Part shown: piece by piece, positions 4,570 through 31,060 of the stretch | Layout: each line of letters begins with the position of its first letter | Numbering within the stretch: the stretch's first letter is position 1 | From: Polyangium spumosum | GTDB taxonomy: Bacteria; Myxococcota_A; Polyangia; Polyangiales; Polyangiaceae | Assembly: GCF_009649845.1 (NCBI RefSeq) | Contig: NZ_WJIE01000009.1 | Location: 1-32,684, forward strand | Length of the DNA: 32,684 bases | Direction of reading: 5' to 3' | Translations under genes and position numbers: made by a program | The notes under the pieces: model-generated | Seen by the model: only the letters and a program-made list of their open reading frames with translations | Told to the model about the DNA's origin: nothing | The model's database searches: none

Positions 4570-8697
<4,128 letters not shown>

Positions 8698-22620: not shown

Positions 22621-22640
22621 GCCTCGGGGGACCTTTGATG

Positions 22641-22718
22641 AAAGGTCTCGAGGGGGTCGATCAAAGGTCTCGAGGGGGTCGATCAAAGGTCTCGAGGGGG
22701 TCGATCAAAGGTCTCGAC
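22641..22718. repeat. 22-bp direct tandem repeat, ~3.5 copies (AAAGGTCTCGAGGGGGTCGATC)
   Basis: Read directly: three perfect 22-nt units at 22641-22662, 22663-22684 and 22685-22706, plus a partial unit AAAGGTCTCGAC that merges into the 21-bp array. The period is not a multiple of 3. Confidence 0.9.
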
Positions 22719-23009
22719 CCGGTCGCGGACCTGCTCGACCCGGTCGCGGACCTGCTCGACCCGGTCGGCGACCTGCTCGACCCGGTCGCGAACCTGCTCG
22801 ACCCGGTCGGTGACCTCCTCGACCCGGTCGCGAACCTGCTCGACCCGGTCGCGGACCTCCTCGACCCGGTCGCGGACCTGCTCGACCCGGTCGCGGACCT
22901 GCTCGACCCGGTCGCGGACCTCCTCGACCCGGTCGCGGACCTGCTCGACCCGGTCGCGGACCTGCTCGACCCGGTCGCGGACCTCCTCGACCCGGTCGCC
23001 GACCGCCTG
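22716..23009. repeat. 21-bp direct tandem repeat, 14 copies (GACCCGGTCGCGGACCTGCTC), in phase with codons
   Basis: Read directly: 14 contiguous units with few variant positions (gcg to ggc/gcc, gac to aac/gtg, ctg to ctc, last unit GACCCGGTCGCCGACCGCCTG). All six frames are open across it: DPVADLL, TRSRTCS and PGRGPAR on the + strand. Positions 2, 8, 14, 17 and 20 of the unit are the only A/T. Confidence 0.9.
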
Positions 23010-24009
23010 GACGGGGGCCTGTTCGGCGTGGGAGAGAACGCGTACCCTGGAGCTCTTGGCAACCCGGATCGAAGGGCGGATCGGAGACCATTACCAGCTC
23101 TCGGCCGTGCTCGGCCGGGGGGCCATGGGCACGGTGTACGCGGCGAAGGACCTGCGCACGGGCAAACGCGTGGCCCTCAAGGCCCTGCACGTCCGCGGGT
23201 TCCTCGACCCGCGCGACCCGGACGTCCTGCGCTTCGAGCAGGAGGCGCGTATCGCAGGATCGCTCGCGTCCGAGCACATCGCCCAGGTCTTCGACATCGA
23301 GCGAGACCCCGAGACCGAGGCGCCGTTCCTCGTGATGGAGCTGCTCCGCGGCGAGGACCTGCAATCGCTGCTCGACCGCGTGGGGCCCCTCTCGGTCGAC
23401 GTGGCCTTGCGGATCGCGGCGCAGGCCGCGCGGGGGCTCGCGGCGGCGCACGCGGCCGGGGTCGTGCATCGGGACGTCAAGCCCGGCAACCTCTACCTGG
23501 CGCGGCAACATGGCGGCGAGATCGTGGTCAAGGTCCTCGATTTTGGCATCGCCAAGATACGGCGCCTCCCGGTCGACCTGTCCGCGGGCGCCGGGCTCAC
23601 GGCGCCGCAGGCGTCGATGACGGCGACGGGGCAGCTCCTCGGCTCGCCGCTCTACATGTCGCCGGAGCAGGTGGACGGCGCGAAGGGCCTCGACGCGCGC
23701 AGCGACGTGTTCTCGCTGGCCGTGACGCTCTACGCGATGCTCGCCGGCCGGCCGCCGCACGCGGACGTGAAATCGTTCCCGATGCTGCTCACGCGTATCT
23801 CGACGACGCCCATGCCCCGCATTCGCGCGGCGGCGCCGTGGGTCTCGCCCGAGGTCGAGGCGCTGCTCGACCACGCGGCGCAGCTCGACCGCGAGGCGCG
23901 ATTCCCGAACGCGGCGGGGTTGCTCGACGCGATCGAGCCTCTCCTCCCGGCAGGCGCGGCATTACGCGAGGAGCTGCTCGTCGGCTGCGGGGGGAATTCC
24001 GGACCGTGA
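22810..24009 (+). CDS. Hanks-type Ser/Thr protein kinase (soluble); 5' end embedded in the 21-bp repeat array
   Basis: The kinase domain is unambiguous: HYQLSAVLGRGAMGTVYAAKDLRTGKRVALKAL...HRDVKPGNLYL...DFGIAK...SPLYMSPEQ. The track start, GTG 22810, lies inside the repeats and gives an N-terminus of (TRSRT[CS]S)x9. The alternative TTG at 23056 gives MATRIEGRIGDHYQL, a typical kinase N-terminus, but with a poorly spaced GGAG. There is no ATG/GTG/TTG in this frame between the upstream TGA (22636) and 22810. Confidence 0.8.
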   Translation: MTSSTRSRTCSTRSRTSSTRSRTCSTRSRTCSTRSRTSSTRSRTCSTRSRTCSTRSRTSSTRSPTAWTGACSAWERTRTLELLATRIEGRIGDHYQLSAVLGRGAMGTVYAAKDLRTGKRVALKALHVRGFLDPRDPDVLRFEQEARIAGSLASEHIAQVFDIERDPETEAPFLVMELLRGEDLQSLLDRVGPLSVDVALRIAAQAARGLAAAHAAGVVHRDVKPGNLYLARQHGGEIVVKVLDFGIAKIRRLPVDLSAGAGLTAPQASMTATGQLLGSPLYMSPEQVDGAKGLDARSDVFSLAVTLYAMLAGRPPHADVKSFPMLLTRISTTPMPRIRAAAPWVSPEVEALLDHAAQLDREARFPNAAGLLDAIEPLLPAGAALREELLVGCGGNSGP

Positions 24010-24025
24010 TGAGGACCGACGCGTG

Positions 24026-25744
24026 ATGAACCAGCGGCAGATCCTGGCTTTTGTCGAGAAGCTCCGGCAGGCGCGGACCTTCGAGGACGCCGCGCAGGCC
24101 ATGCTGCGCGGGATGCTGGACGCGGCGAACGAGGCGCTCGGGGCGAGCGGGTTCGCGAACCGAGGCCGCATCCTCCGCGGCATGGCGCATCTGCGGCCCG
24201 GCGACGGCTACCGGCGATTGGTGCTCGTCGACGACGCCCACCGGAGCGGCGAGCCCGTGATCCACCATCTGCCCTCCGCGAGCGCGTGGCGGTGGATCGT
24301 CACGCGGGGGCGCCCCATTGCGCTCGACGTCCCGCTCGGCCGCGTGTGGACGCTGGAGGACGATGCGCCGAAGGTGCTCCAGGAGGGCGGGTTCTCCGGC
24401 CAGGACAGCGTGCTGCGATTGACGAACCGCGACACGAGCCACCTCTATGCGGTCCCCCTGCGGGCCTTCCACGGCGCGATCGAGGGGATGGCGACGGTCG
24501 AGGCGGCCTGCCCGCGGGCCGTGGGCGACGATTTCATCTTCCCGGCCCTCCACGAATCGCTCGAGGTCCTCGCCGACCTCGCGGCGCCTTATCTCGCGAC
24601 CTTGCCCTTGCGGCCTGTGACGGGTGGCGCCACGGACGAGCTCTTGCCGGTCATTGGCCAGACCATGGCGGGCTTGATCGAAATGCTCCGGGTCTTCGCG
24701 CAGCAGGAGGAGACCTTGCTCATCGGCGGTCCGACGGGGGCGGGCAAATCGCGGCTGGCGCGGTGGTGCCATGCGCAATCGGTCCGGCGGGGGGCGCCGT
24801 TCGAGGTGCTCGACCTCATCGCCGTGCCCGAGGAGCTCCAGATGGCGGAGCTCTTCGGCTGGAAAAAGGGCGCCTTCACGGGCGCGGTGCGCGACACGCC
24901 GGGCTGCATCACGCGGGCGTTCAAGGGGACCTTGTTCATCGACGAGATCGACAAGCTCTCGCTGAAGGCGCAGGCGGGCTTGCTCCAGCTCCTCGAATCG
25001 CGGACGTATCGCCCGATCGGGGACGGGGCGCGGGAGCAGCAGGCGAACGTGCGCTTCATCGTGGGCAGCAACGTCGACCTGTACGATCAGGTGAAGGCGG
25101 GCCGTTTCCGGGAGGATCTTTATTATCGGATCAACGTGCTGCCCTTGAAGATCCCCCCGCTCGACGAGCGGCGGGACGAGGTGGCGGAGTGGGCGCGATT
25201 CATGGCGGTGCGGCGTCATCGTGAATCGGTGCCGGGCGGAGAGGTGCGAATCCTGGCGGGGGCGGAGCGGCTGCTGGCGGAGCACACGTGGCCGGGGAAT
25301 TTGCGGCAGCTCGACAACGTGGTGCGGCGGGCCTACGCGCTCGCGTTGATGACGCATGGCCAGGCGGGGGCGGAGGTCGTGCTGGAGGAGAAACATTTCG
25401 CGCGGGCCTTGAGCTACGAGCGCGGGAGCGAGCGGCGGTCGGCGCTGGAGGCGCTACGCGGCGCGGCGGAGGCGCTGGTGGAGGAGGCGGAGCGGCTGGA
25501 GGCGAAGGGGCAGGGGCTCGAGCTGGAGGTATGCGACGCGTTCCGCGGGATCGTGCTGGGGACGGCGGTGGAGAAGCTCGGCAGCCGGGACGCGGCGTTC
25601 CGGCTGTTCGGGAAGGGCGCGCAGGTGCAGGCGCGCAATCACCACAAGATGTTGCGGCGCGAATGGGAGAAGGTGGAGGCGCTCTGCAAGGCGCTCGGGG
25701 AGGAGGGAGCGCCGTTCAAGGGGATGGGGGAGGAGGAGGGGTGA
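24026..25744 (+). CDS. sigma-54-dependent transcriptional activator (GAF-like N-domain, AAA+ sigma-54 interaction domain, degenerate C-terminal HTH)
   Basis: Walker A is LLIGGPTGAGKSRLAR. The GAFTGA motif is WKKGAFTGA. Walker B/ESR is TLFIDEIDKLS...RFIVGSNVDL...EDLYYRINVL. The ATG is 14 nt after the kinase stop and follows GAGGA, fitting an operon with the Ser/Thr kinase. Confidence 0.9.
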   Translation: MNQRQILAFVEKLRQARTFEDAAQAMLRGMLDAANEALGASGFANRGRILRGMAHLRPGDGYRRLVLVDDAHRSGEPVIHHLPSASAWRWIVTRGRPIALDVPLGRVWTLEDDAPKVLQEGGFSGQDSVLRLTNRDTSHLYAVPLRAFHGAIEGMATVEAACPRAVGDDFIFPALHESLEVLADLAAPYLATLPLRPVTGGATDELLPVIGQTMAGLIEMLRVFAQQEETLLIGGPTGAGKSRLARWCHAQSVRRGAPFEVLDLIAVPEELQMAELFGWKKGAFTGAVRDTPGCITRAFKGTLFIDEIDKLSLKAQAGLLQLLESRTYRPIGDGAREQQANVRFIVGSNVDLYDQVKAGRFREDLYYRINVLPLKIPPLDERRDEVAEWARFMAVRRHRESVPGGEVRILAGAERLLAEHTWPGNLRQLDNVVRRAYALALMTHGQAGAEVVLEEKHFARALSYERGSERRSALEALRGAAEALVEEAERLEAKGQGLELEVCDAFRGIVLGTAVEKLGSRDAAFRLFGKGAQVQARNHHKMLRREWEKVEALCKALGEEGAPFKGMGEEEG

Positions 25745-25751
25745 GGGGCAC

Positions 25752-26582
25752 TCACTGCAGTATGTAGCAGCTCGCGTCCTCGGTCTTGAGGCGTACCCGG
25801 ATCGTCTCGGTGTAGCCATAGCTGTCGAAGTAGTCCCAGAGGCCGCCCTCCAAGGAACCTCCCCCGGAACCGCACACACCGAGGTTCGTCAGGTTGCACG
25901 TCGAGCTCGTGTCGCAGATGCGGGTTGACATGGCCTGGGCAGGATCGCCGCACGCGTTCGCGAGGTCGTCCTCCCAGCACACGTACGCCTCCGAGTTCGC
26001 TGGGCCCAGGAACAGATTGCCGAACGCGGTCGACTCGCGGAGATTGTACGTCCCCTGCAAGGTGCTGTCGGGCTCGATGGCGGCGTGCGCCCCCTCGAGC
26101 AGGATGGGCACGGGCTCCTCGAAGGCATTCAGCTTTTGAATCATGCAGGCGGAGACCCACCGTTGCTCCGAGAGCGTAAGCGGAGCGCCAAGCCATCCAT
26201 CGGCGAGCCCCCACCAACCCCTGTACGTCTCCCCGGTGATCGGGTCACGCACCGCCTGGTCCTCGCGTAGCGCGCACTTCACGGCCGATCTGAAATACTG
26301 GTGAGAGTAGACCGGCGGCTTGGTGAGGAACGATATCATCGTTCCACCTCCTGCATCGAGCGCCTGAGAGCCGATGGCGTATAGCGCCGTCAGCGTTTGG
26401 GGCCACCACAAGGGCACCGAGTCGTCGCCATTCTGCCCGGTCGGCGGCGGATCGGGGTCGCCCATCGTCTGGAACGGGACGTCGAACATGTCCTCGTCGA
26501 GCGCGTGTTCGGGGCCGCTGCAGCCGGTCGCCAAGGTGCATGCGCCAGCGAGCATCAAGGATGAAAGTCGAACGTTGATCAT
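25752..26582 (-). CDS. lipoprotein, paralog A of a tandem pair (unknown family)
   Basis: The track ORF runs to 27278. The internal ATG at 26580-26582 gives MINVRLSSLMLAGACTLATGC, a signal peptide with LATGC lipobox. It continues SGPEHALDEDMFDVPFQTMGDPDPPPTGQNGDD...YRGWWGLADGW...LLEGAH and ends in a Cys-rich C-terminal third. Its stop is 7 nt from the convergent activator stop. Confidence 0.8.
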   Translation of the reverse strand: MINVRLSSLMLAGACTLATGCSGPEHALDEDMFDVPFQTMGDPDPPPTGQNGDDSVPLWWPQTLTALYAIGSQALDAGGGTMISFLTKPPVYSHQYFRSAVKCALREDQAVRDPITGETYRGWWGLADGWLGAPLTLSEQRWVSACMIQKLNAFEEPVPILLEGAHAAIEPDSTLQGTYNLRESTAFGNLFLGPANSEAYVCWEDDLANACGDPAQAMSTRICDTSSTCNLTNLGVCGSGGGSLEGGLWDYFDSYGYTETIRVRLKTEDASCYILQ

Positions 26583-26674
26583 GAGTACCTTTCCATTCAA
26601 TGGCAGCCCCTTGCAGGGCGCCGCTAGCGGCTCGGATTCGGTGGACGAGGCTCGTCGTGGACCACGAAGTGGGG

Positions 26675-27580
26675 TCACTCCGGGAGGTCGCAGTCGAGCC
26701 CGTACATGTCGAGGTTGGGCAGGCGCTCGCGGAAATTGAGATAGGTGCCGCCGCAGCTCCAGTAGTTTCCGCCGTTCCACCAAGTGCACGCGGTCTCGCA
26801 CGGCCCTACCACGTGGACGCCACACGAGGTGCCTGCGGTGCCGCAGAGCTTGTCGTCGAGCACGGCCTCCGCATCGTTGCAGTCGTACATCAGGTCGTCG
26901 AAGTAACACGCGCTGGCCGTGAACGCGGGGCGGGAAAAGCGCGGGGTATAATCTTCGGGCTCGAGGGGCGCGATCGAATCGAACAGATTGCCCCAGACGA
27001 TCGAGTCGTACTTGGGGTATCCAGACGGGACCGTGTTGATGTAGAAGCCCGGGCGATACCCCTCCAGCAAGAGGTTCGTGGTGGTCTTGTAACCATTGAG
27101 GTGCTGGACGAGGCAGGAGGTCATCCAGTATCTGTTGTCGGAGCCGAGGGCCTGGGTCTGCCATTGCGAGGCGACGCCGTACCAGCCGGAGTACGTCAGG
27201 TTCGTGGCAGGATCCGTGACGGTCACGTTCTGCGGCAGGGCGCACTTGATCAGGAACTTGAGGGCGTGTTCCCTGCACGAATCGGACCCGAGCTGCGGCA
27301 GGTGCGGCATGCTGGGGAGCTGCCCCTGCGCATTGACGAGCGGGCCATCAGCGAGATCGCGGTACGTCTGCTGGACGCCGTGGTGCCAGAAGCAGTTGGG
27401 GAAGAAGGGATTTTGCCCGGTGGGGGGCGGATCGGGATCCGGATCGCCGCCGGTCATCGGCTCGAGCGGCACGTCGAACGCGTCCACTCCGACCGTGCCT
27501 CCGGCACCGATGTCTCCGCACCCCGTCGCCAGCATACAAGCACTGACCAGGATCATGCACGAGGATCGAACGTCATTCAT
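26675..27580 (-). CDS. lipoprotein, paralog B of a tandem pair (unknown family)
   Basis: MNDVRSSCMILVSACMLATGC has the same LATGC lipobox. Collinear motifs are shared with paralog A: GDPDPDPPPTGQNPF, YSGWYGVASQW, LLLEGY and a C-terminal Cys cluster (CYFDDLMYDCND...CGTAGTSCGVHVVGPCETACTWW). The track first codon is GTG at 27590-27592, and the ATG is 4 codons later. Confidence 0.8.
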   Translation of the reverse strand: MNDVRSSCMILVSACMLATGCGDIGAGGTVGVDAFDVPLEPMTGGDPDPDPPPTGQNPFFPNCFWHHGVQQTYRDLADGPLVNAQGQLPSMPHLPQLGSDSCREHALKFLIKCALPQNVTVTDPATNLTYSGWYGVASQWQTQALGSDNRYWMTSCLVQHLNGYKTTTNLLLEGYRPGFYINTVPSGYPKYDSIVWGNLFDSIAPLEPEDYTPRFSRPAFTASACYFDDLMYDCNDAEAVLDDKLCGTAGTSCGVHVVGPCETACTWWNGGNYWSCGGTYLNFRERLPNLDMYGLDCDLPE

Positions 27581-27618
27581 GAGTGCCTCCACGGTTCCGC
27601 GAGCCGAGCGGACGGTAG

Positions 27619-27636
27619 TGCACCGCTCGTGCCAAC
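27619..27636 (-). promoter_or_regulatory. candidate sigma-54 (-24/-12) promoter upstream of lipoprotein paralog B
   Basis: The minus strand reads TTGGCACGAGCGGTGCA. TGGCACG is a 7/7 match to the -24 element. GG to GC spacing is exactly 10 nt. The -12 element is GTGC versus the TTGC consensus. The predicted start is ~25-30 nt upstream of the ATG at 27580. A sigma-54 activator is encoded 2 kb away. Confidence 0.35.
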
Positions 27637-27761
27637 TCCACGTGAGCCGTGACGACGGGCGTCATCGTAGGGACCGGAGGCCTCGGTACGGCAGGTGAAG
27701 CCCACCCGCCACCACGTCTCGGATACGTTGGTGTTACAGGGTGCGGTATCAGGTGTCCGTG

Positions 27762-27781
27762 GGGTACGCGAGCGCGTACCC
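27762..27781. promoter_or_regulatory. perfect palindrome GGGTACGC-gagc-GCGTACCC ~130 bp upstream of the sigma-54 candidate (possible enhancer/UAS, or 3' hairpin of the upstream kinase gene)
   Basis: Read directly: 8-bp arms with a 4-nt spacer. It lies in the intergenic region between the receptor kinase stop (27799) and paralog B. The distance to the -24 element fits activator enhancer geometry. It lacks a U-tract, so it is not a canonical terminator. Confidence 0.25.
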
Positions 27782-27798
27782 AGGGGACGCGGCGGGTC

Positions 27799-30700
27799 TC
27801 AGAGCAACGCAAGCGCCTCCATGAGAGCCTGGCCATGTTGGCGCTCGAGGCTGTGATCCTCGCGGAAGGCGGACTCCAGGGCCTCCCTCGCGCGACGGGC
27901 GGCGTCGGAGACCGCGGCCCCACGGCCTGCCGCGCGAGCCTGTACCAGGTAGAGTAGACCCTTCGCCAGGAGCGCCGTGGCCATGTGTGGATTTATCGAG
28001 AGCGCCTTGTCCGCCATGAGGAGCCCGGCGGCGACGTCCTCGCGCGAACTTCTGGCGGTCTGCTGGGCCCACGACGCCCGCCAGGCATGGATCTCGGCCG
28101 CGATTTGGTATGGGTTCGGATCCCTGGCATCGGAGAGCAACGGGCGTATCGTCGCGAGGGCGGCATCAAAGGCGTCGGCGTCCACGTCCCTCCGTTGCAC
28201 GGCGACGCGTATGGCGATCAGGTCGATCTCCGCGGTCATTCCGCGCAGGTCGGGGGTCAGGCCCCCGCGAAGCTTCGCCGCCTCCGATGTAGCTTGCCGT
28301 GCGGTCGAGACGGAGGCGTCCGGGGCGAGACCTTCCTGGATCTCGTACAAGGCACGCAGATAATAACAGCAGGCCACTTCGGCGAGCAGGTACGGATCTC
28401 TGGGCTGGTCACCGGCGAAGCGACGCACCCTATCGAGAGCTGATTGTATCGATGGGCGTGGATCTCGGCCGAGGGAGAGCTCGCGAAGTCCTTGGAGTCG
28501 CTCCACGCGTGCCCTCCAGTAGGCTTTACGAAATGGGTCGATGTTTTCCCGCTGCTCGAGTGACGTGAGTGCCGCCGCCAGCGCCGCGACTGGAGCCATC
28601 TCGGCTCGACCTCGTTGGATCTCGTGACGCACCAGCAGGGCGAGCGCCTGGACTCTCAGATGGATGGGTGGCGCGAAGGCCGGATCCAGCGCGATCGCGC
28701 GGTCGAAATGTCGGAGGGCCTCGTTCACGACATCCTGCACATCCTCGCCGCGCGAGGTGGCCCGGCCTGCAGCCGCAAGATATACCTGCCCCAGCTCGTT
28801 GACCGCCCAGGTGAAGCTCGGGTCGAGCTCGATGGCTCGACGATACGCAGAGATGACGGGCTCGACCGATAGATCCTCGCCCCGCGAGGAGAGGATCTGC
28901 GTGTGGTTGTTGATCGAGCGCGCCATCGCATAATGCGCCATCACGTCCCCCGGGCTCATGCGCACGCTCTCCTCCGCCGCGCGCACCGCCTCCTCCGCGA
29001 CCCGCCGTGCTTCCTCCCCGGTATCGCCGCGGAATGCATACGATCGCGCCGACATCACGAGCGCCCGCTGCACCCGCGCCCTTCCATCCTTCGAGCTCGC
29101 CTGCACCGCGCGCATGCAAGCTTCATCCGCCGTATCGAGCGCCGCCTTCATCGACGCCCCCTTCTCCCCCGCTGCCCACCCCATCTTCTCCCAAAGCTCA
29201 CACTCCGCCCGATGCAGGTCCGGATCACTCTCCCCCATCCGCGCCGCCACCGCGTACGCCTCCGCCGCCGGATCGAAATACCGCTTCATCTTCTCCCAAT
29301 CGAACGCCGCGTCGTGCCGATACTTGCTCCCCTCCGCGAACAACGCATCCGCCTCCAGTTGCTTCGCCTCGTACATCCACGGCGCCTGCTCGAACGCCTC
29401 CTTCCCCAGCGCCCGCGCCTCCTCGTTCCTCCCCTCGTACAGCGCGATCAGCCCCTCCACGTACGCCGGCGCCTCGATCTCCGCCCCCGACGCCGCCCGC
29501 AGATGCCCGAGCGCAGGATCCCGCAACGCCGCCGCGAGCTCCGCCTCCCGCTTCTTTCGCTCCTCCGCGTTCGTGATCCGCTTCGTCTCGTCGAGCGCCC
29601 TTCGATACAGCTCCCCCAGCGTCCGACCGAGCGCATATTCGAGCTCCGGCGACCGATACCCCGCCGCCACCGCCGCCTCCAGGTGCTCCCGCGCCTTCTC
29701 CGGATCCCCCAGCGCCAGATACCCCCGCCCGAGCGCGTAATGCCCCGGCCCCTCGCCGACCCGCCCCGCCTCCTTCATTCGTTGCTCGATCCCCGCGAGC
29801 TTCCGCCGCACCACGTCCCGCTCCCGCTCCACGTCGTGCAAGGGCAATGCGTAGGCCGCGCGCAGGAAGAGCTCCATCTCCTTCACCCGCTCCCCGAGCT
29901 CCTGCGCGAGCCTCGCCTCCGCCGCCGCCTGCTGCCGCGCCTCGAACCACACACCCGAGAGCGCGAGCGCGGCGACGAGCGACGCCCCCCCGAGCGCCGT
30001 CGCGAGCTTGTGCTTCCGCGCCTTCTTCAGGAGCACGTATCCCCAGGACGCACGCCGCGCCGCGATGGGCTCCCCGTCCAGAAATCGCTGCAGATCCTCC
30101 GCGAGCGCCCGCGCCGATTCGTATCGACGCCCGGGATCACGCTCCAGGCATTTCATCACGATCGTCTCGAGGTCCGCCGGCACCCCCTTCTTCACCGTCC
30201 CGAGCGGCGGCGGATCCTCGAACGCCACCATCATCAAGAGCTTCCACGCGTGTGGCGCGACGAACGGTGGCCGCTCCGCGAGGACGTCGTACAAGGTCGC
30301 CCCGAGCGAATACACGTCCGAACGTCGATCCAGCGCGTGCACCTCGCCCTTCGCTTGCTCCGGCGACATGAACGCCGGCGTCCCCAGCACCGCCCCCGTC
30401 ACCGTCTCCCCCTTGTCCGCGACCTCCCGCGCCAGACCAAAATCCATCACGTACGGCTTGATTCCCCCGTCCGCGTCGGCCTCGACCATGATGTTCCCGG
30501 GCTTCAGATCCCGATGAATCAGCCCGAGCCGGTGCGCCTCGTGCACCGCCGCCGCGACCTCGCGCATCACCTTCACGCGTTGCTCGAGCGAGAGCCGCCC
30601 GGCCATCCTCGAGAGCGGCTCGCCCTCGATGTATTGCATCGCGATGAACGGCTCGCCGTCGGCCTCCCCGGCCTCGTAAATGCGGCAGACGTGCTCGTGC

Positions 30701-31011
30701 TGGATCTTCGCCTGCGCGCGCGCCTCCAGCAGGAAACGCCGCCAGAGCTCCGGATCGCTGCCCTTCAAGAGCTTGAGCGCCACCACGCGCCCGAGCCGCT
30801 TGTCCCGGCCGCGGTAGACCGCCCCCATCCCGCCTTCGCCGAGGAAATGGATGTCCTCGTACCGCTCCGCGAGGGACGGAGGCACGAAGCGACGCTCGGA
30901 CCGCGGCACCGAACGAGGGCCTGATTCCGTCGACGCGAGACCCGGCGCCGCGAGCACCGTGGTGTTCTCCACGTCGACGTTCTCCTCGGGCGACGCTCGA
31001 ACGATCCTCAT
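27799..31011 (-). CDS. receptor-type Ser/Thr protein kinase: N-terminal Hanks kinase, single TM, ~700-aa C-terminal helical (TPR-like) repeat domain
   Basis: The track ORF 27799..32070 is over-extended. The internal ATG at 31009-31011 has GGGGGAGG 5 nt upstream and gives MRIVRASPEEN...YEDIHFLGEGGMGAVYRGRDKRLGRVVALKLL...HRDLKPGNIMV...DFGLAR...GTPAFMSPEQ. A TM helix (KLATALGGASLVAALALSGVWF) follows, then a long alpha-helical repeat region (e.g. ALGRGYLALGDPEKAREHLEAAVAAGY). The sequence beyond 31011 overlaps a real + strand gene. Confidence 0.9.
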   Translation of the reverse strand: MRIVRASPEENVDVENTTVLAAPGLASTESGPRSVPRSERRFVPPSLAERYEDIHFLGEGGMGAVYRGRDKRLGRVVALKLLKGSDPELWRRFLLEARAQAKIQHEHVCRIYEAGEADGEPFIAMQYIEGEPLSRMAGRLSLEQRVKVMREVAAAVHEAHRLGLIHRDLKPGNIMVEADADGGIKPYVMDFGLAREVADKGETVTGAVLGTPAFMSPEQAKGEVHALDRRSDVYSLGATLYDVLAERPPFVAPHAWKLLMMVAFEDPPPLGTVKKGVPADLETIVMKCLERDPGRRYESARALAEDLQRFLDGEPIAARRASWGYVLLKKARKHKLATALGGASLVAALALSGVWFEARQQAAAEARLAQELGERVKEMELFLRAAYALPLHDVERERDVVRRKLAGIEQRMKEAGRVGEGPGHYALGRGYLALGDPEKAREHLEAAVAAGYRSPELEYALGRTLGELYRRALDETKRITNAEERKKREAELAAALRDPALGHLRAASGAEIEAPAYVEGLIALYEGRNEEARALGKEAFEQAPWMYEAKQLEADALFAEGSKYRHDAAFDWEKMKRYFDPAAEAYAVAARMGESDPDLHRAECELWEKMGWAAGEKGASMKAALDTADEACMRAVQASSKDGRARVQRALVMSARSYAFRGDTGEEARRVAEEAVRAAEESVRMSPGDVMAHYAMARSINNHTQILSSRGEDLSVEPVISAYRRAIELDPSFTWAVNELGQVYLAAAGRATSRGEDVQDVVNEALRHFDRAIALDPAFAPPIHLRVQALALLVRHEIQRGRAEMAPVAALAAALTSLEQRENIDPFRKAYWRARVERLQGLRELSLGRDPRPSIQSALDRVRRFAGDQPRDPYLLAEVACCYYLRALYEIQEGLAPDASVSTARQATSEAAKLRGGLTPDLRGMTAEIDLIAIRVAVQRRDVDADAFDAALATIRPLLSDARDPNPYQIAAEIHAWRASWAQQTARSSREDVAAGLLMADKALSINPHMATALLAKGLLYLVQARAAGRGAAVSDAARRAREALESAFREDHSLERQHGQALMEALALL

Positions 31012-31044: not shown

Positions 31045-31060
31045 GGCAAACACCATACCA
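31045..31060 (-). promoter_or_regulatory. weaker sigma-54-like -24/-12 match upstream of the receptor kinase gene
   Basis: The minus strand reads TGGTATGGTGTTTGCC. GG to GC spacing is 10 nt. The -12 element is TTTGC, a perfect TTGC core. The -24 element is TGGTAT versus TGGCAC. The predicted start is ~24 nt upstream of the ATG at 31011. Confidence 0.22.

Follow-up and report, generated by a model that had tools for sequence, protein, structure and literature searches.

A candidate sigma-54 control region with tandem enhancer dyads upstream of a lipoprotein gene pair in Polyangium spumosum

We propose that a 218-bp intergenic gap in Polyangium spumosum is a complete sigma-54 control region for a pair of lipoprotein genes. 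In the reading that we consider likely, the gap combines a sigma-54-type promoter with upstream dyads bound by the activator encoded at 24023-25744, and this activator is probably gated by a kinase. The analysis covered a window of 32,684 nucleotides, the whole stretch of DNA under study, and a comparison set of related Polyangium loci and metagenome contigs that carry L numbers below. The promoter and dyad motifs are present, conserved, and arranged with fixed geometry, and the dyads co-occur with orthologs of the activator. The relevant features of the window are as follows.

23056-24009, plus strand: Ser/Thr kinase STK2, whose gene directly precedes that of the activator, 13 nt away (Pkinase E = 1.1e-37)
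24023-25744, plus strand: sigma-54 enhancer-binding protein (the activator), convergent with lipoprotein A (PF00158, GAFTGA)
25752-26582, minus strand: lipoprotein A, 276 aa, a paralog 31% identical to lipoprotein B that starts 92 nt after B
26675-27580, minus strand: lipoprotein B, 301 aa, lipobox LATGC, first gene behind the predicted promoter
27586-27590, minus strand: Shine-Dalgarno sequence GGAGG, 5 nt before the ATG, as read from the sequence
27619-27635, minus strand: predicted sigma-54-type promoter, T-TGGCAC-GAGCG-GTGCA, called as the only window match and from conservation
27753-27769: candidate enhancer dyad 2, GTGTCCGTGGGGTACGC on the plus strand, at a position matching the second dyad of relatives
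27762-27781: perfect 8+4+8 palindrome, made up of the inner half-sites of both dyads with a 4-bp spacer between them
27774-27790: candidate enhancer dyad 1, GCGTACCCAGGGGACGC on the plus strand, with GCGT and ACGC as invariant alignment columns
27799-31011, minus strand: Ser/Thr kinase-TPR protein, 1070 aa, with a single predicted membrane span followed by a long TPR region at the C terminus

A preliminary description of this DNA had called a sigma-54-type motif with GG-N10-GC geometry on the minus strand. The motif is there, with exactly that geometry, and it has no second match in the window. It reads TGGCACGAGCGGTGCA at 27634..27619, with the -24 GG at 27633-27632 and the -12 GC at 27621-27620. 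It lies in the correct orientation inside the gap, which extends from the kinase-TPR stop codon (TGA, 27801-27799) to the lipoprotein-B ATG at 27580. The pattern TGGCAC-N5-KTGCW matches the window at this site only (0.04 matches expected; a match in 4 of 100 shuffles). Searching for TGGCAC-N5-TTGCW with up to one mismatch returned the same single site, where 0.46 were expected and 35 of 100 shuffles contained a match. Given these chance-match rates, the motif alone is only suggestive. TGGCACGAGCGGTGCA differs from TGGCAC-N5-TTGCW by one mismatch, T to G at -15, and its -12 element is GTGCA rather than TTGCA. It also fits the Myxococcus xanthus sigma-54 consensus, yTGGCACGrnnnTTGCw (PMC12754779), with one mismatch.

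At its 3' end the motif stops 38 nt short of the lipoprotein-B ATG. The preliminary description had placed the motif about 25 nt before the start codon, a figure that holds only if the distance is counted from the predicted start of transcription. We predict this start near 27608 from the position of the motif, so that the leader would be about 28 nt long. A promoter scan found no sigma-70-type promoter in the 218-bp gap, ECF promoters being outside the models of the scan. The window contains no rpoN gene, the DNA between enhancer and promoter has no consistent match to the IHF site WATCAANNNNTTR, and Rfam returned no match in 25600-28000 at E <= 1. In the loci other than the window, an AT-richer patch precedes the promoter motif by about 25-50 bp.

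A Polyangium spumosum protein named "Lipoprotein" in UniRef and hypothetical by NCBI matches lipoprotein B with 100% identity. Neither lipoprotein matches a Pfam or NCBIfam family. We rejected a separate promoter for lipoprotein A, as inspection by eye found no GG-N10-GC motif in 26583-26674; a terminator scan was also empty there. Because lipoprotein A follows B so closely, with neither a promoter nor a terminator motif of its own, the two genes are probably co-transcribed as a single lipoB-lipoA transcript.

Phylogenetic footprinting strongly supports the promoter call. The motif TTGGCAY-N5-NTGCW precedes every lipoprotein gene of the group examined, except lipoprotein A of the window and one distant copy in L006. 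In that distant homolog, which is the first of the L006 copies, a sigma-70-like promoter takes the place of the motif. The promoter motif was found at lipoprotein genes in nine further loci, with these sequences.

L001, two lipoprotein genes: TGGCACAACCTCTGCA and TGGCACACCAAGTGCA
L003: TGGCATGAGCAGTGCA
L005/L008: TGGCACAGCCTCTGCA
L009: TGGCATAATCGGTGCA
L010: TGGCACGACTGCTGCT
L006: TGGCACGCGTCCTGCT
L012: TGGCACAGCCAGTGCA
L004: CGGCACGGTTTCTGCA

We aligned eight promoter regions (the window, both L001 genes, L003, L005, L009, L010, and L006). The alignment has a mean column identity of 56% and contains 28 invariant columns, including GCGT and ACGC, the -24 TGGCA, the -12 TGC, the GGAG of the Shine-Dalgarno sequence, and the ATG. 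The promoter spacer and flanks diverge, whereas the -24 and -12 bases are fixed. We infer that the lipoprotein-B promoter is sigma-54 dependent.

The perfect 8+4+8 palindrome reported upstream of this promoter was confirmed at 27762-27781, where it reads exactly GGGTACGC-gagc-GCGTACCC. Its center is 139 bp upstream of the -24 GG, compared with the approximately 130 bp given earlier. By sequence comparison, the conserved unit is a tandem 17-bp dyad, GCGT-N9-ACGC, with the consensus GCGTACC-N3-GGTACGC. The idea that the palindrome marks an enhancer is supported, but the palindrome itself is the junction of two dyads and not the unit. Dyad 1 begins 8 nt past the kinase stop codon, has one mismatch to the consensus, and is centered at about -174 from the predicted start; its 17-mer is identical in Polyangium sp. 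15x6 (L006). Dyad 2, centered at about -153, is degenerate, with three mismatches and an outer half-site of ACAC in place of ACGC. Its position equals that of the second dyad in the tandem arrays of L001, L003, L005/L008, L009, L010, L012, and L013. The two centers are 21 bp apart, or approximately two helical turns, a spacing that would place both dyads on the same face of the DNA.

Orthologous regions, where the preliminary description had proposed a search for the palindrome, do contain the element. We saw the dyad in L001 (twice), L003, L005/L008, L006, L009, L010, L011, L012, L013, and L016. The composite pattern GCGT-N9-ACGC-N4/5-GCGT occurs once in the window, at the palindrome site, with 0.05 occurrences expected per window. 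Across ten loci, the pattern matches only upstream of lipoprotein genes, and it is missing from L004 and from L007, a short fragment. The dyad array lies upstream of the promoter, and the DNA between the two is not conserved. Seven promoters from six distinct loci, both L001 paralogs included, have exactly 122 bp between the start of the array and the start of the promoter. The window, at 156 bp, and P. aurulentum, at 178 bp, depart from the 122 bp of most relatives, and the distance from dyad to promoter ranges from 68 to 178 bp across loci. The N9 within each dyad is constant, and the gap between dyads is 4, 5, or 15 bp. In 176 kb of sequence (window plus loci), 15 dyads lie within two mismatches of the consensus, versus 1.8 in shuffles, and 13 of the 15 are 40-200 bp upstream of a sigma-54-like motif, versus 0.05 in shuffles; this enrichment test is partly circular because the consensus came from the tested loci.

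We examined the activator as the candidate ligand of these dyads. It consists of a GAF-like N-terminal domain, an AAA+ core with the GAFTGA motif, and a helical C-terminal domain. The core matches PF00158 (E = 3.9e-48) and carries the loop sequence KKGAFTGAV, and the closest solved structures are FlrC, NifA, and NtrC1 (approximately 1e-47). The earlier label of a GAF-type activator failed in sequence searches and held at the level of the fold. None of 15 N-terminal fragments matched the Pfam GAF family, even at E = 10, and a PDB profile search gave no GAF-domain match for the N terminus. A model of residues 1-205 (pLDDT 84, pTM 0.84) retrieved 79 PDB matches at E <= 0.001, with TM-scores of about 0.5. 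Among the best 50 of these 79, all except CviR were phytochrome or cyanobacteriochrome GAF domains or the GAF domain of Nlh2, an activator from Aquifex. A fold search with the full-length model gave AAA+ cores only, and the GAF fold surfaced only when the N-terminal domain was searched in isolation. By modeling, then, the N-terminal domain has a GAF-like fold that only structure reveals.

The C-terminal domain contains five helices in a confident model, and its C-terminal helix carries the motif RNHxKxxxR, invariant across 14 orthologs of 49-71% identity. Neither Pfam nor a PDB-sequence profile search matched HTH_8 to this domain, so the helical model and the conservation are what suggest that it binds DNA. 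NCBIfam identified neither end domain, and its NtrC alignments reach residues 532-538 of the activator. More than 100 full-length relatives of 52-85% identity make up the activator clade, in Polyangium, Sorangium, Myxococcus, Archangium, and other genera. Literature searches turned up nothing specific on a Polyangium sigma-54 system or on this activator.

The preliminary description had linked the enhancer to the neighboring activator. Conserved synteny and the presence of the dyad beside orthologs of the activator support this link. M. xanthus and Archangium violaceum lack the lipoprotein genes, yet in both the dyad still adjoins the activator ortholog. M. xanthus has tandem dyads with an N4 spacer upstream of the gene for its own ortholog, which is 54% identical. 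In A. violaceum, a dyad and TGGCACCGCCCTTGCT directly follow the ortholog and precede a phosphoesterase gene. The dyads of P. fumosum lie between divergent sigma-54 motifs, before an M4 peptidase gene and a gene for a 319-aa protein, and share the palindrome junction (GGTACGC-agcc-GCGTACC). P. aurulentum has an extra single dyad with a promoter before an RCC1-repeat gene. One ortholog locus from Sorangium (L015) showed no clear dyad. In L004, another activator (37% identical) is encoded beside the lipoprotein gene, and another repeat, CGTATGC-N4-GCA, occurs twice upstream, 34 bp apart. This pairing of a different activator with a different repeat is what co-variation of site and activator would produce. 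We infer from these comparisons that the protein binding the dyads is most likely the 24023-25744 activator.

The pairing of the activator with a Ser/Thr kinase, also proposed earlier, was borne out, as the STK2 gene ends 13 nt before the activator gene. The start codon of STK2 is uncertain. Kinase-activator adjacency is conserved in L008, L011, and L012. The kinase-TPR gene is the upstream neighbor of the lipoprotein genes, and this position is also conserved in related loci. The entire module of kinase, activator, lipoprotein(s), and kinase-TPR is conserved, and in L006 it is rearranged yet complete. Conserved synteny and gene adjacency are the grounds for suggesting that the activator is under kinase control. 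We dropped a sigma-54 promoter for the kinase-TPR gene as a part of the circuit. Such a promoter is convincing in four loci of the metagenome clade, the window has a degenerate version of it, and P. fumosum and P. aurulentum have none.

Other explanations of the palindrome and the promoter have to be weighed against these data. The palindrome might act in RNA, as a hairpin that terminates or stabilizes the upstream kinase transcript, and not as a protein-binding enhancer. It starts 8-18 nt past the kinase stop codon and can fold at -21.4 kcal/mol (z = -2.7); the folds in L009 and L010 also beat shuffles, and terminators with a poor U-tract are frequent in high-GC bacteria. However, predicted folds vary between loci. 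Those of L001 gene 2, L003, and L005 are no better than shuffles (z = +0.6, -0.8, and -0.4), and the inner stem is merely 4 bp in L001 and L005. Conservation is seen in the four half-site sequences and in their fixed 122-bp distance to the promoter. The array also occurs where no kinase gene ends: in the second intergenic region of L001, upstream of the M. xanthus activator, and between the divergent promoters of P. fumosum. We therefore regard the hairpin explanation as quite unlikely, although a dual role as hairpin and protein site is possible. An intrinsic terminator was rejected, given that no T-tract follows the palindrome, the scan for terminators is empty at this site, and hairpins are inconsistent across loci.

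If the dyads are protein-binding sites, they could still belong to a repressor or to a different enhancer-binding protein. Enhancer-binding proteins number in the dozens in myxobacteria, the C-terminal domain of our activator has no HTH match, and L015 has an ortholog without a dyad. We judge this alternative unlikely: the dyad stands beside orthologs of this activator in three genera, even where the other module genes all differ, and the different activator of L004 comes with a different upstream repeat. The constrained distance to sigma-54 motifs also favors an activator. Very improbable, in our estimation, is that the sigma-54 motif is a chance match and that lipoprotein transcription reads through from the kinase gene or starts at a sigma-70 or ECF promoter that went unrecognized. 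The frequency of one-mismatch matches in shuffles and the exclusion of ECF promoters from the scan models speak for chance, but the -24 and -12 bases are invariant in eight regions that average 56% column identity, the motif reappears at a constant spacing from the dyads, and the gap has no sigma-70 match.

The preferred reading, activation of a sigma-54 promoter by the neighboring activator, suggests the following mechanism. Sigma-54 RNA polymerase would sit on TGGCAC-N5-GTGCA (27634..27619) as a closed complex, with initiation near 27608 producing a leader of about 28 nt that carries the GGAGG ribosome-binding site. Initiation would require an AAA+ activator bound upstream, on the two tandem 17-bp dyads at 27790..27774 and 27769..27753. 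Activator dimers would bind there, oligomerize, loop the DNA to the promoter, and open it with ATP. The activator would probably be gated through its GAF-like domain by the co-transcribed Ser/Thr kinase. The membrane kinase-TPR protein, whose gene lies immediately upstream of the lipoprotein pair, might also contribute a signal. As a regulatory switch the arrangement is well supported but of an ordinary type; a sigma-54 promoter with an upstream enhancer is textbook.

A more far-reaching version, which we find doubtful, is a self-contained envelope-signaling loop in which Hanks-type kinases act through the cryptic GAF-like domain on the sigma-54 activator, and the resulting exported proteins feed back. 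If this were true, Hanks-type Ser/Thr kinases would phosphorylate the GAF-like domain of an activator that is widespread in Myxococcota. The activator would recognize GCGTACC-N3-GGTACGC and switch on lineage-specific exported proteins, which would be the lipoproteins here and an M4 peptidase, a phosphoesterase, or an RCC1-repeat protein elsewhere. The induced lipoproteins could partner the TPR domain of the membrane kinase, which is predicted to be periplasmic. Such a loop would be a direct pathway from eukaryotic-like kinase to GAF domain to sigma-54, with feedback.

In myxobacteria there are dozens of sigma-54 activators, and Ser/Thr kinases can run into the hundreds. To our knowledge, neither targets nor binding sites are known for most of them. 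Activation of the lipoprotein promoter through the dyads would add a concrete recognition motif, GCGTACC-N3-GGTACGC, for an activator clade. It would also supply a target promoter whose geometry is fixed, together with a conserved gene module in which two kinases accompany the activator. Together, the motif, the promoter geometry, and the module make regulon prediction possible in any myxobacterial genome. They also provide a clean system in which to ask whether Hanks-type kinases control a sigma-54 activator via a GAF-like domain.

We compared the control region to known sigma-54 systems. The NtrC enhancer at glnAp2 of enteric bacteria has two tandem 17-bp dyads on the same helix face and a TGGCAC-N5-TTGCA promoter. 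Its sites lie approximately 100-150 bp upstream, and the AAA+ activator works by DNA looping. The candidate region has the same layout of two tandem 17-bp dyads with a 6-5-6-like architecture, on one helix face, upstream of a sigma-54 promoter. In the loci with the 122-bp distance, the dyad centers fall at about -140 and -118, near the -140 and -108 of glnAp2. The half-site is GCGTACC here and TGCACC for NtrC, the N-terminal domain is GAF-like rather than a receiver domain, and the gene neighbor encodes a Hanks-type Ser/Thr kinase rather than a histidine kinase. The targets are lipoproteins here and nitrogen-assimilation genes for NtrC.

The idea of eukaryotic-like kinases feeding sigma-54 activators in myxobacteria also has a precedent. 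FHA-domain enhancer-binding proteins of M. xanthus are reportedly linked to Ser/Thr kinases (Jelsbak et al. in 2005 are said to have described them). The regulatory domain is GAF-like here in place of FHA, and kinase control is suggested here by gene adjacency.

NorR is a GAF-regulated enhancer-binding protein that uses three enhancer sites at norVW to form the active oligomer (PMC2831303). An activator with a GAF or GAF-like domain and more than one upstream site is common to both systems, which differ in site sequence, signal (NO for NorR), and organism; only two clear sites are present here. PexR of M. xanthus is an enhancer-binding protein whose N-terminal GAF domain is autoinhibitory (PMC12754779, Nucleic Acids Res 2025). 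Its binding sites are tandem repeats with dyad symmetry that precede sigma-54 promoters validated by 5'-RACE and mutation, and these elements are conserved across the phylum (PMC12754779). The likeness is that of a GAF enhancer-binding protein from Myxococcota with tandem dyad repeats before sigma-54 promoters. The PexR repeat, CACCG-n6-CGGTG, was not found in the 218-bp gap, which contains GCGT-N9-ACGC dyads instead, and we rejected identity with PexR because the repeat sequence differs. The GAF domain of PexR is described as a metal-binding H2O2 sensor, and its targets are ahpC and katB (PMC12754779). The activator examined here has a GAF-like domain unrecognizable by sequence, is encoded beside a kinase gene, and would control lipoproteins rather than ahpC and katB.

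We built the gene map of the window (68.5% G+C) from third-codon-position G+C and a list of ORFs. The genes under discussion are as follows:

31011..27799, minus strand: Ser/Thr kinase of 1070 aa with a TPR-rich C-terminal region (kinase-TPR)
27580..26675, minus strand: lipoprotein B (lipoB), 301 aa, lipobox LATGC
26582..25752, minus strand: lipoprotein A (lipoA), 276 aa, 31% identical to lipoprotein B
ending at 24009, plus strand: second Ser/Thr kinase, convergent with the lipoprotein genes
24023-25744, plus strand: sigma-54 activator, starting 13 nt past the second kinase, convergent with the lipoprotein genes

Lipoprotein B matches a protein of the myxobacterium Polyangium spumosum with 100% identity; its close relatives are few (five matches). 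Neither lipoprotein had a Pfam match or an NCBIfam model. Both are Cys-rich members of a large uncharacterised family: a profile search gave 1596 cluster representatives at E <= 0.001, of which 648 reached E <= 1e-10, and some of the matching proteins are about 800-1200 aa long and align over 2-4 stretches. The two genes are probably co-transcribed, since they lie 92 nt apart and we found neither a promoter motif nor a terminator motif between them.

Pfam confirmed both kinases and identified a sigma-54 interaction domain in the activator (E = 3.9e-48), in agreement with the preliminary description, which had paired a sigma-54 activator with a Ser/Thr kinase. Sequence comparison confirms the AAA+ core. 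The activator had also been called GAF-type, a label that is right at the level of fold but not of sequence. Pfam detected no GAF domain and no HTH domain there, and sequence methods recognized neither the N-domain nor the C-terminal domain. In a full-length model built from 36 sequences (pLDDT 85), the AAA+ core sits between an alpha/beta N-domain and a C-terminal domain of five helices. Modeled in isolation (pLDDT 84, pTM 0.84), the N-domain gave 79 PDB matches at E <= 0.001 with TM-scores of about 0.5; all but one (CviR) of the best 50 were GAF domains, among them that of the Aquifex activator Nlh2. The N-domain is thus predicted to adopt a GAF-like fold. RNHxKxxxR, in the final helix of the C-terminal domain, does not vary among 14 orthologues, which would fit a conserved recognition helix for a conserved DNA site. 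Two adjoining tandem repeat arrays at 22637-23004 (3.7 copies of a 22-bp unit, 98% identical, then 13.9 copies of the 21-bp unit CTCGACCCGGTCGCGGACCTG, 92% identical) overlap, or sit just 5' of, the start of the second kinase ORF. The 21-bp period corresponds to a heptad on translation, and the minus strand reads QVRDRVE.

The 218-bp gap between the kinase-TPR stop and the lipoB ATG holds the putative regulatory sites. Its minus strand runs from the stop TGA (27801-27799) through gacccgcc GCGT cccctgggt ACGC gctc GCGT accccacgg ACAC, then 117 nt, then T TGGCAC GAGCG GTGCA ctaccgtccgctcggctcgcggaaccgt GGAGG cactc ATG. The sigma-54 motif reported earlier is present at 27634..27619 (minus strand) with exact GG-N10-GC geometry; it ends 38 nt before the lipoB ATG, rather than the roughly 25 nt first given. 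This is the sole match on both strands of the 32.7 kb, where 0.04 are expected, and it fits the myxobacterial consensus yTGGCACGrnnnTTGCw, as quoted in PMC12754779, with one mismatch. Because the strict consensus with one mismatch allowed would yield 0.46 matches by expectation, the motif taken alone is suggestive, not decisive. No sigma-70-like promoter was found in a scan of the gap. A perfect 7-nt inverted repeat, CGAGCGG / CCGCTCG (27605-27611 and 27623-27629), flanks the -12 element and the predicted start site; it was not seen in related promoters and so may be due to chance.

We compared the gap with the loci of the lipoprotein relatives and with further ones, some from metagenome or SRA contigs (L001/L002, L003, L009, L010) and others from Polyangium genomes or MAGs (L004, L005, L006, L007; L008 was also recovered). 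In tblastn searches, L001, L003, L005/L008, L009 and L010 shared one module, in which kinase-TPR is followed by one or two lipoprotein genes, and these by the activator and the second kinase in convergent orientation. L006/L007 had the complete module in rearranged order. The lipoprotein genes at these loci all follow a sigma-54 motif, apart from the first L006 copy and the L007 fragment, which lacks upstream sequence:

L001, gene 1: TGGCACAACCTCTGCA
L001, gene 2: TGGCACACCAAGTGCA
L003: TGGCATGAGCAGTGCA
L005/L008: TGGCACAGCCTCTGCA
L009: TGGCATAATCGGTGCA
L010: TGGCACGACTGCTGCT
L006, gene 2: TGGCACGCGTCCTGCT
L004: CGGCACGGTTTCTGCA

An alignment of eight sequences has a mean column identity of 56%, yet no variation occurs in TGGCA, TGC, the SD GGAG, the ATG or the GCGT and ACGC blocks just past the kinase stop. 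To judge from this alignment, the promoter conservation is a classical phylogenetic footprint, and it excludes a chance match as the explanation of the window motif.

Several other features were observed at these loci. One distant lipoprotein copy, directly 3' of the activator gene in L006, is preceded by a sigma-70-like TTGACA-N17-ATACAT and no sigma-54 motif (5843-6000). In L004, a more distant lipoprotein homologue adjoins a different sigma-54 activator (37% identical), and a different repeat, CGTATGC-N4-GCA, occurs twice, 34 bp apart, before CGGCACGGTTTCTGCA (5865-5965). A separate sigma-54-type motif lies 24-45 nt 5' of the start of the kinase-TPR gene, with no dyads seen upstream. This motif is near-perfect in four metagenome-clade loci (e.g. 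TGGCATGTACGTTGCT; L001 137-152, L003 about 463-478, L005 165-180, L008 2560-2575), weaker in the window (TGGTATGGTGTTTGCC, 31045-31060, minus strand), and has been lost from both P. fumosum and P. aurulentum. Finally, an AT-richer 15-mer (9-10 A/T of 15) lies about 25-50 bp 5' of TGGCA in L001, L003, L005, L009, L010 and L012, between enhancer and promoter, a position at which one would look for an IHF site or an intrinsic bend. It contains no IHF consensus, and the window has no such patch at that distance.

The perfect 8+4+8 palindrome proposed as an enhancer site is exact at 27762-27781, with its centre 139 bp 5' of the -24 GG instead of about 130 bp. A conserved array does lie there, but the palindrome appears to be a junction within it and not its unit. 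Pooling all copies gave the consensus GCGTACC-N3-GGTACGC, a perfect 17-bp dyad, which the gap contains twice:

27774-27790: dyad 1, one mismatch to the consensus
27753-27769: dyad 2, three mismatches to the consensus

The GCGT-to-ACGC spacing is N9 in all copies, and the distance between dyads varies (4, 5 or 15 bp). Dyads also stand alone: one precedes the RCC1-repeat gene in L012, one follows the activator gene of L016, and M. xanthus has one as its third site. Tandem dyads lie 21-22 bp apart from centre to centre, or two helical turns. These features favour the 17-bp dyad over the palindrome as the probable recognition unit, with the palindrome formed by the right half of dyad 1 facing the left half of dyad 2. 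The junction persists in P. fumosum (GGTACGC-agcc-GCGTACC), and the dyad 1 17-mer has an identical copy in Polyangium sp. 15x6.

The composite GCGT-N9-ACGC-N4/5-GCGT, expected 0.05 times per window, occurs once in the window, in the gap. Across ten loci all matches fell within lipoprotein upstream regions; searches of L004 and L007 returned none. Measured between the array's first G and the T of TGGCA, the spacing is exactly 122 bp at seven promoters of six distinct loci with diverged intervening DNA; the window has 156 bp and P. aurulentum 178 bp. The motifs are rare by chance and conserved with fixed geometry. Over 176 kb, dyads with <=2 mismatches numbered 15 versus 1.8 in local shuffles, and 13 of the 15 sit 40-200 bp 5' of a sigma-54-like motif (shuffles, 0.05). 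The loci that supplied the consensus were also those tested, which makes the comparison partly circular.

The window palindrome can fold (-21.4 kcal/mol, z = -2.7), as a terminator of the kinase-TPR transcript would. Against that reading, no T-tract follows, predicted folds vary among loci (in three of the seven, shuffled sequence folds just as well), and the array is found also where no gene ends; a secondary role as a terminator is at most a minor possibility. L001 is informative here: each of its two lipoprotein genes has a full array in front of it, and the second of these arrays does not lie behind a kinase gene. A search of 25600-28000 matched no known RNA family (Rfam, E <= 1).

Full-length relatives of the activator (52-85% identity) number more than a hundred across Myxococcota, and we recovered loci for five:

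L011, P. fumosum: activator 85% identical to that of the window
L012, P. aurulentum: 76% identical
L013/L014, M. xanthus: 54% identical
L015, Sorangium: 57% identical
L016, Archangium violaceum: 58% identical

In P. fumosum, the place of the lipoprotein genes is taken by an M4 peptidase gene with two small genes, and the tandem dyads are flanked by two divergent sigma-54 motifs. P. aurulentum has tandem dyads and a promoter before a lipoprotein homologue, and a further dyad and promoter before an RCC1-repeat gene. Neither a kinase nor a lipoprotein gene adjoins the M. xanthus activator gene, which is itself preceded by tandem dyads (N4 spacer) and then TGGCACGGGACGCGCA (L013 7713-7829), suggesting autoregulation of this orthologue. 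A strong hairpin, AACGCGGAAGGAG...CTCCTTCCGCGTT, lies at L013 7890-7925, within about 170 nt 5' of the activator ATG. In A. violaceum, one dyad and TGGCACCGCCCTTGCT lie directly 3' of the activator gene, before a PF04185 phosphoesterase gene. The Sorangium locus had no clear dyad. Dyads with sigma-54 motifs thus precede genes other than those for lipoproteins:

L011 12837-13043 (P. fumosum): M4 peptidase gene and divergent 319-aa gene
L012 10257-10396 (P. aurulentum): RCC1-repeat gene
L016 9758-9841 (A. violaceum): PF04185 phosphoesterase gene

These positions indicate that the local target set of the activator varies by lineage. The motifs are associated with activator orthologues, and in L004 a different activator comes with a different repeat. 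That the neighbouring activator binds the dyads is argued mainly from this co-variation of site and activator. Binding by another regulator is possible but is disfavoured by the same co-occurrence. With the neighbouring activator as the candidate binder, established knowledge of sigma-54 suggests that a closed complex would form at -24/-12, that activator dimers on the tandem dyads would oligomerise and loop to the promoter, and that ATP-driven opening would start transcription near 27608. Synteny suggests that the adjacent kinase may control the activator and that the kinase-TPR protein may have some role.

A limited literature search returned no description of the activator clade, the dyad motif, or the Polyangium module. 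The finding has good support and is of use in predicting regulons, but it would not surprise a specialist. The architecture would work like that of NtrC at glnAp2 and of the recently described M. xanthus PexR, a GAF-domain activator that binds tandem dyad repeats 5' of sigma-54 promoters (PMC12754779). The PexR repeats are CACCG-n6-CGGTG (PMC12754779), whereas the dyads here are GCGTACC-N3-GGTACGC, and we therefore conclude that the system described here is not PexR.
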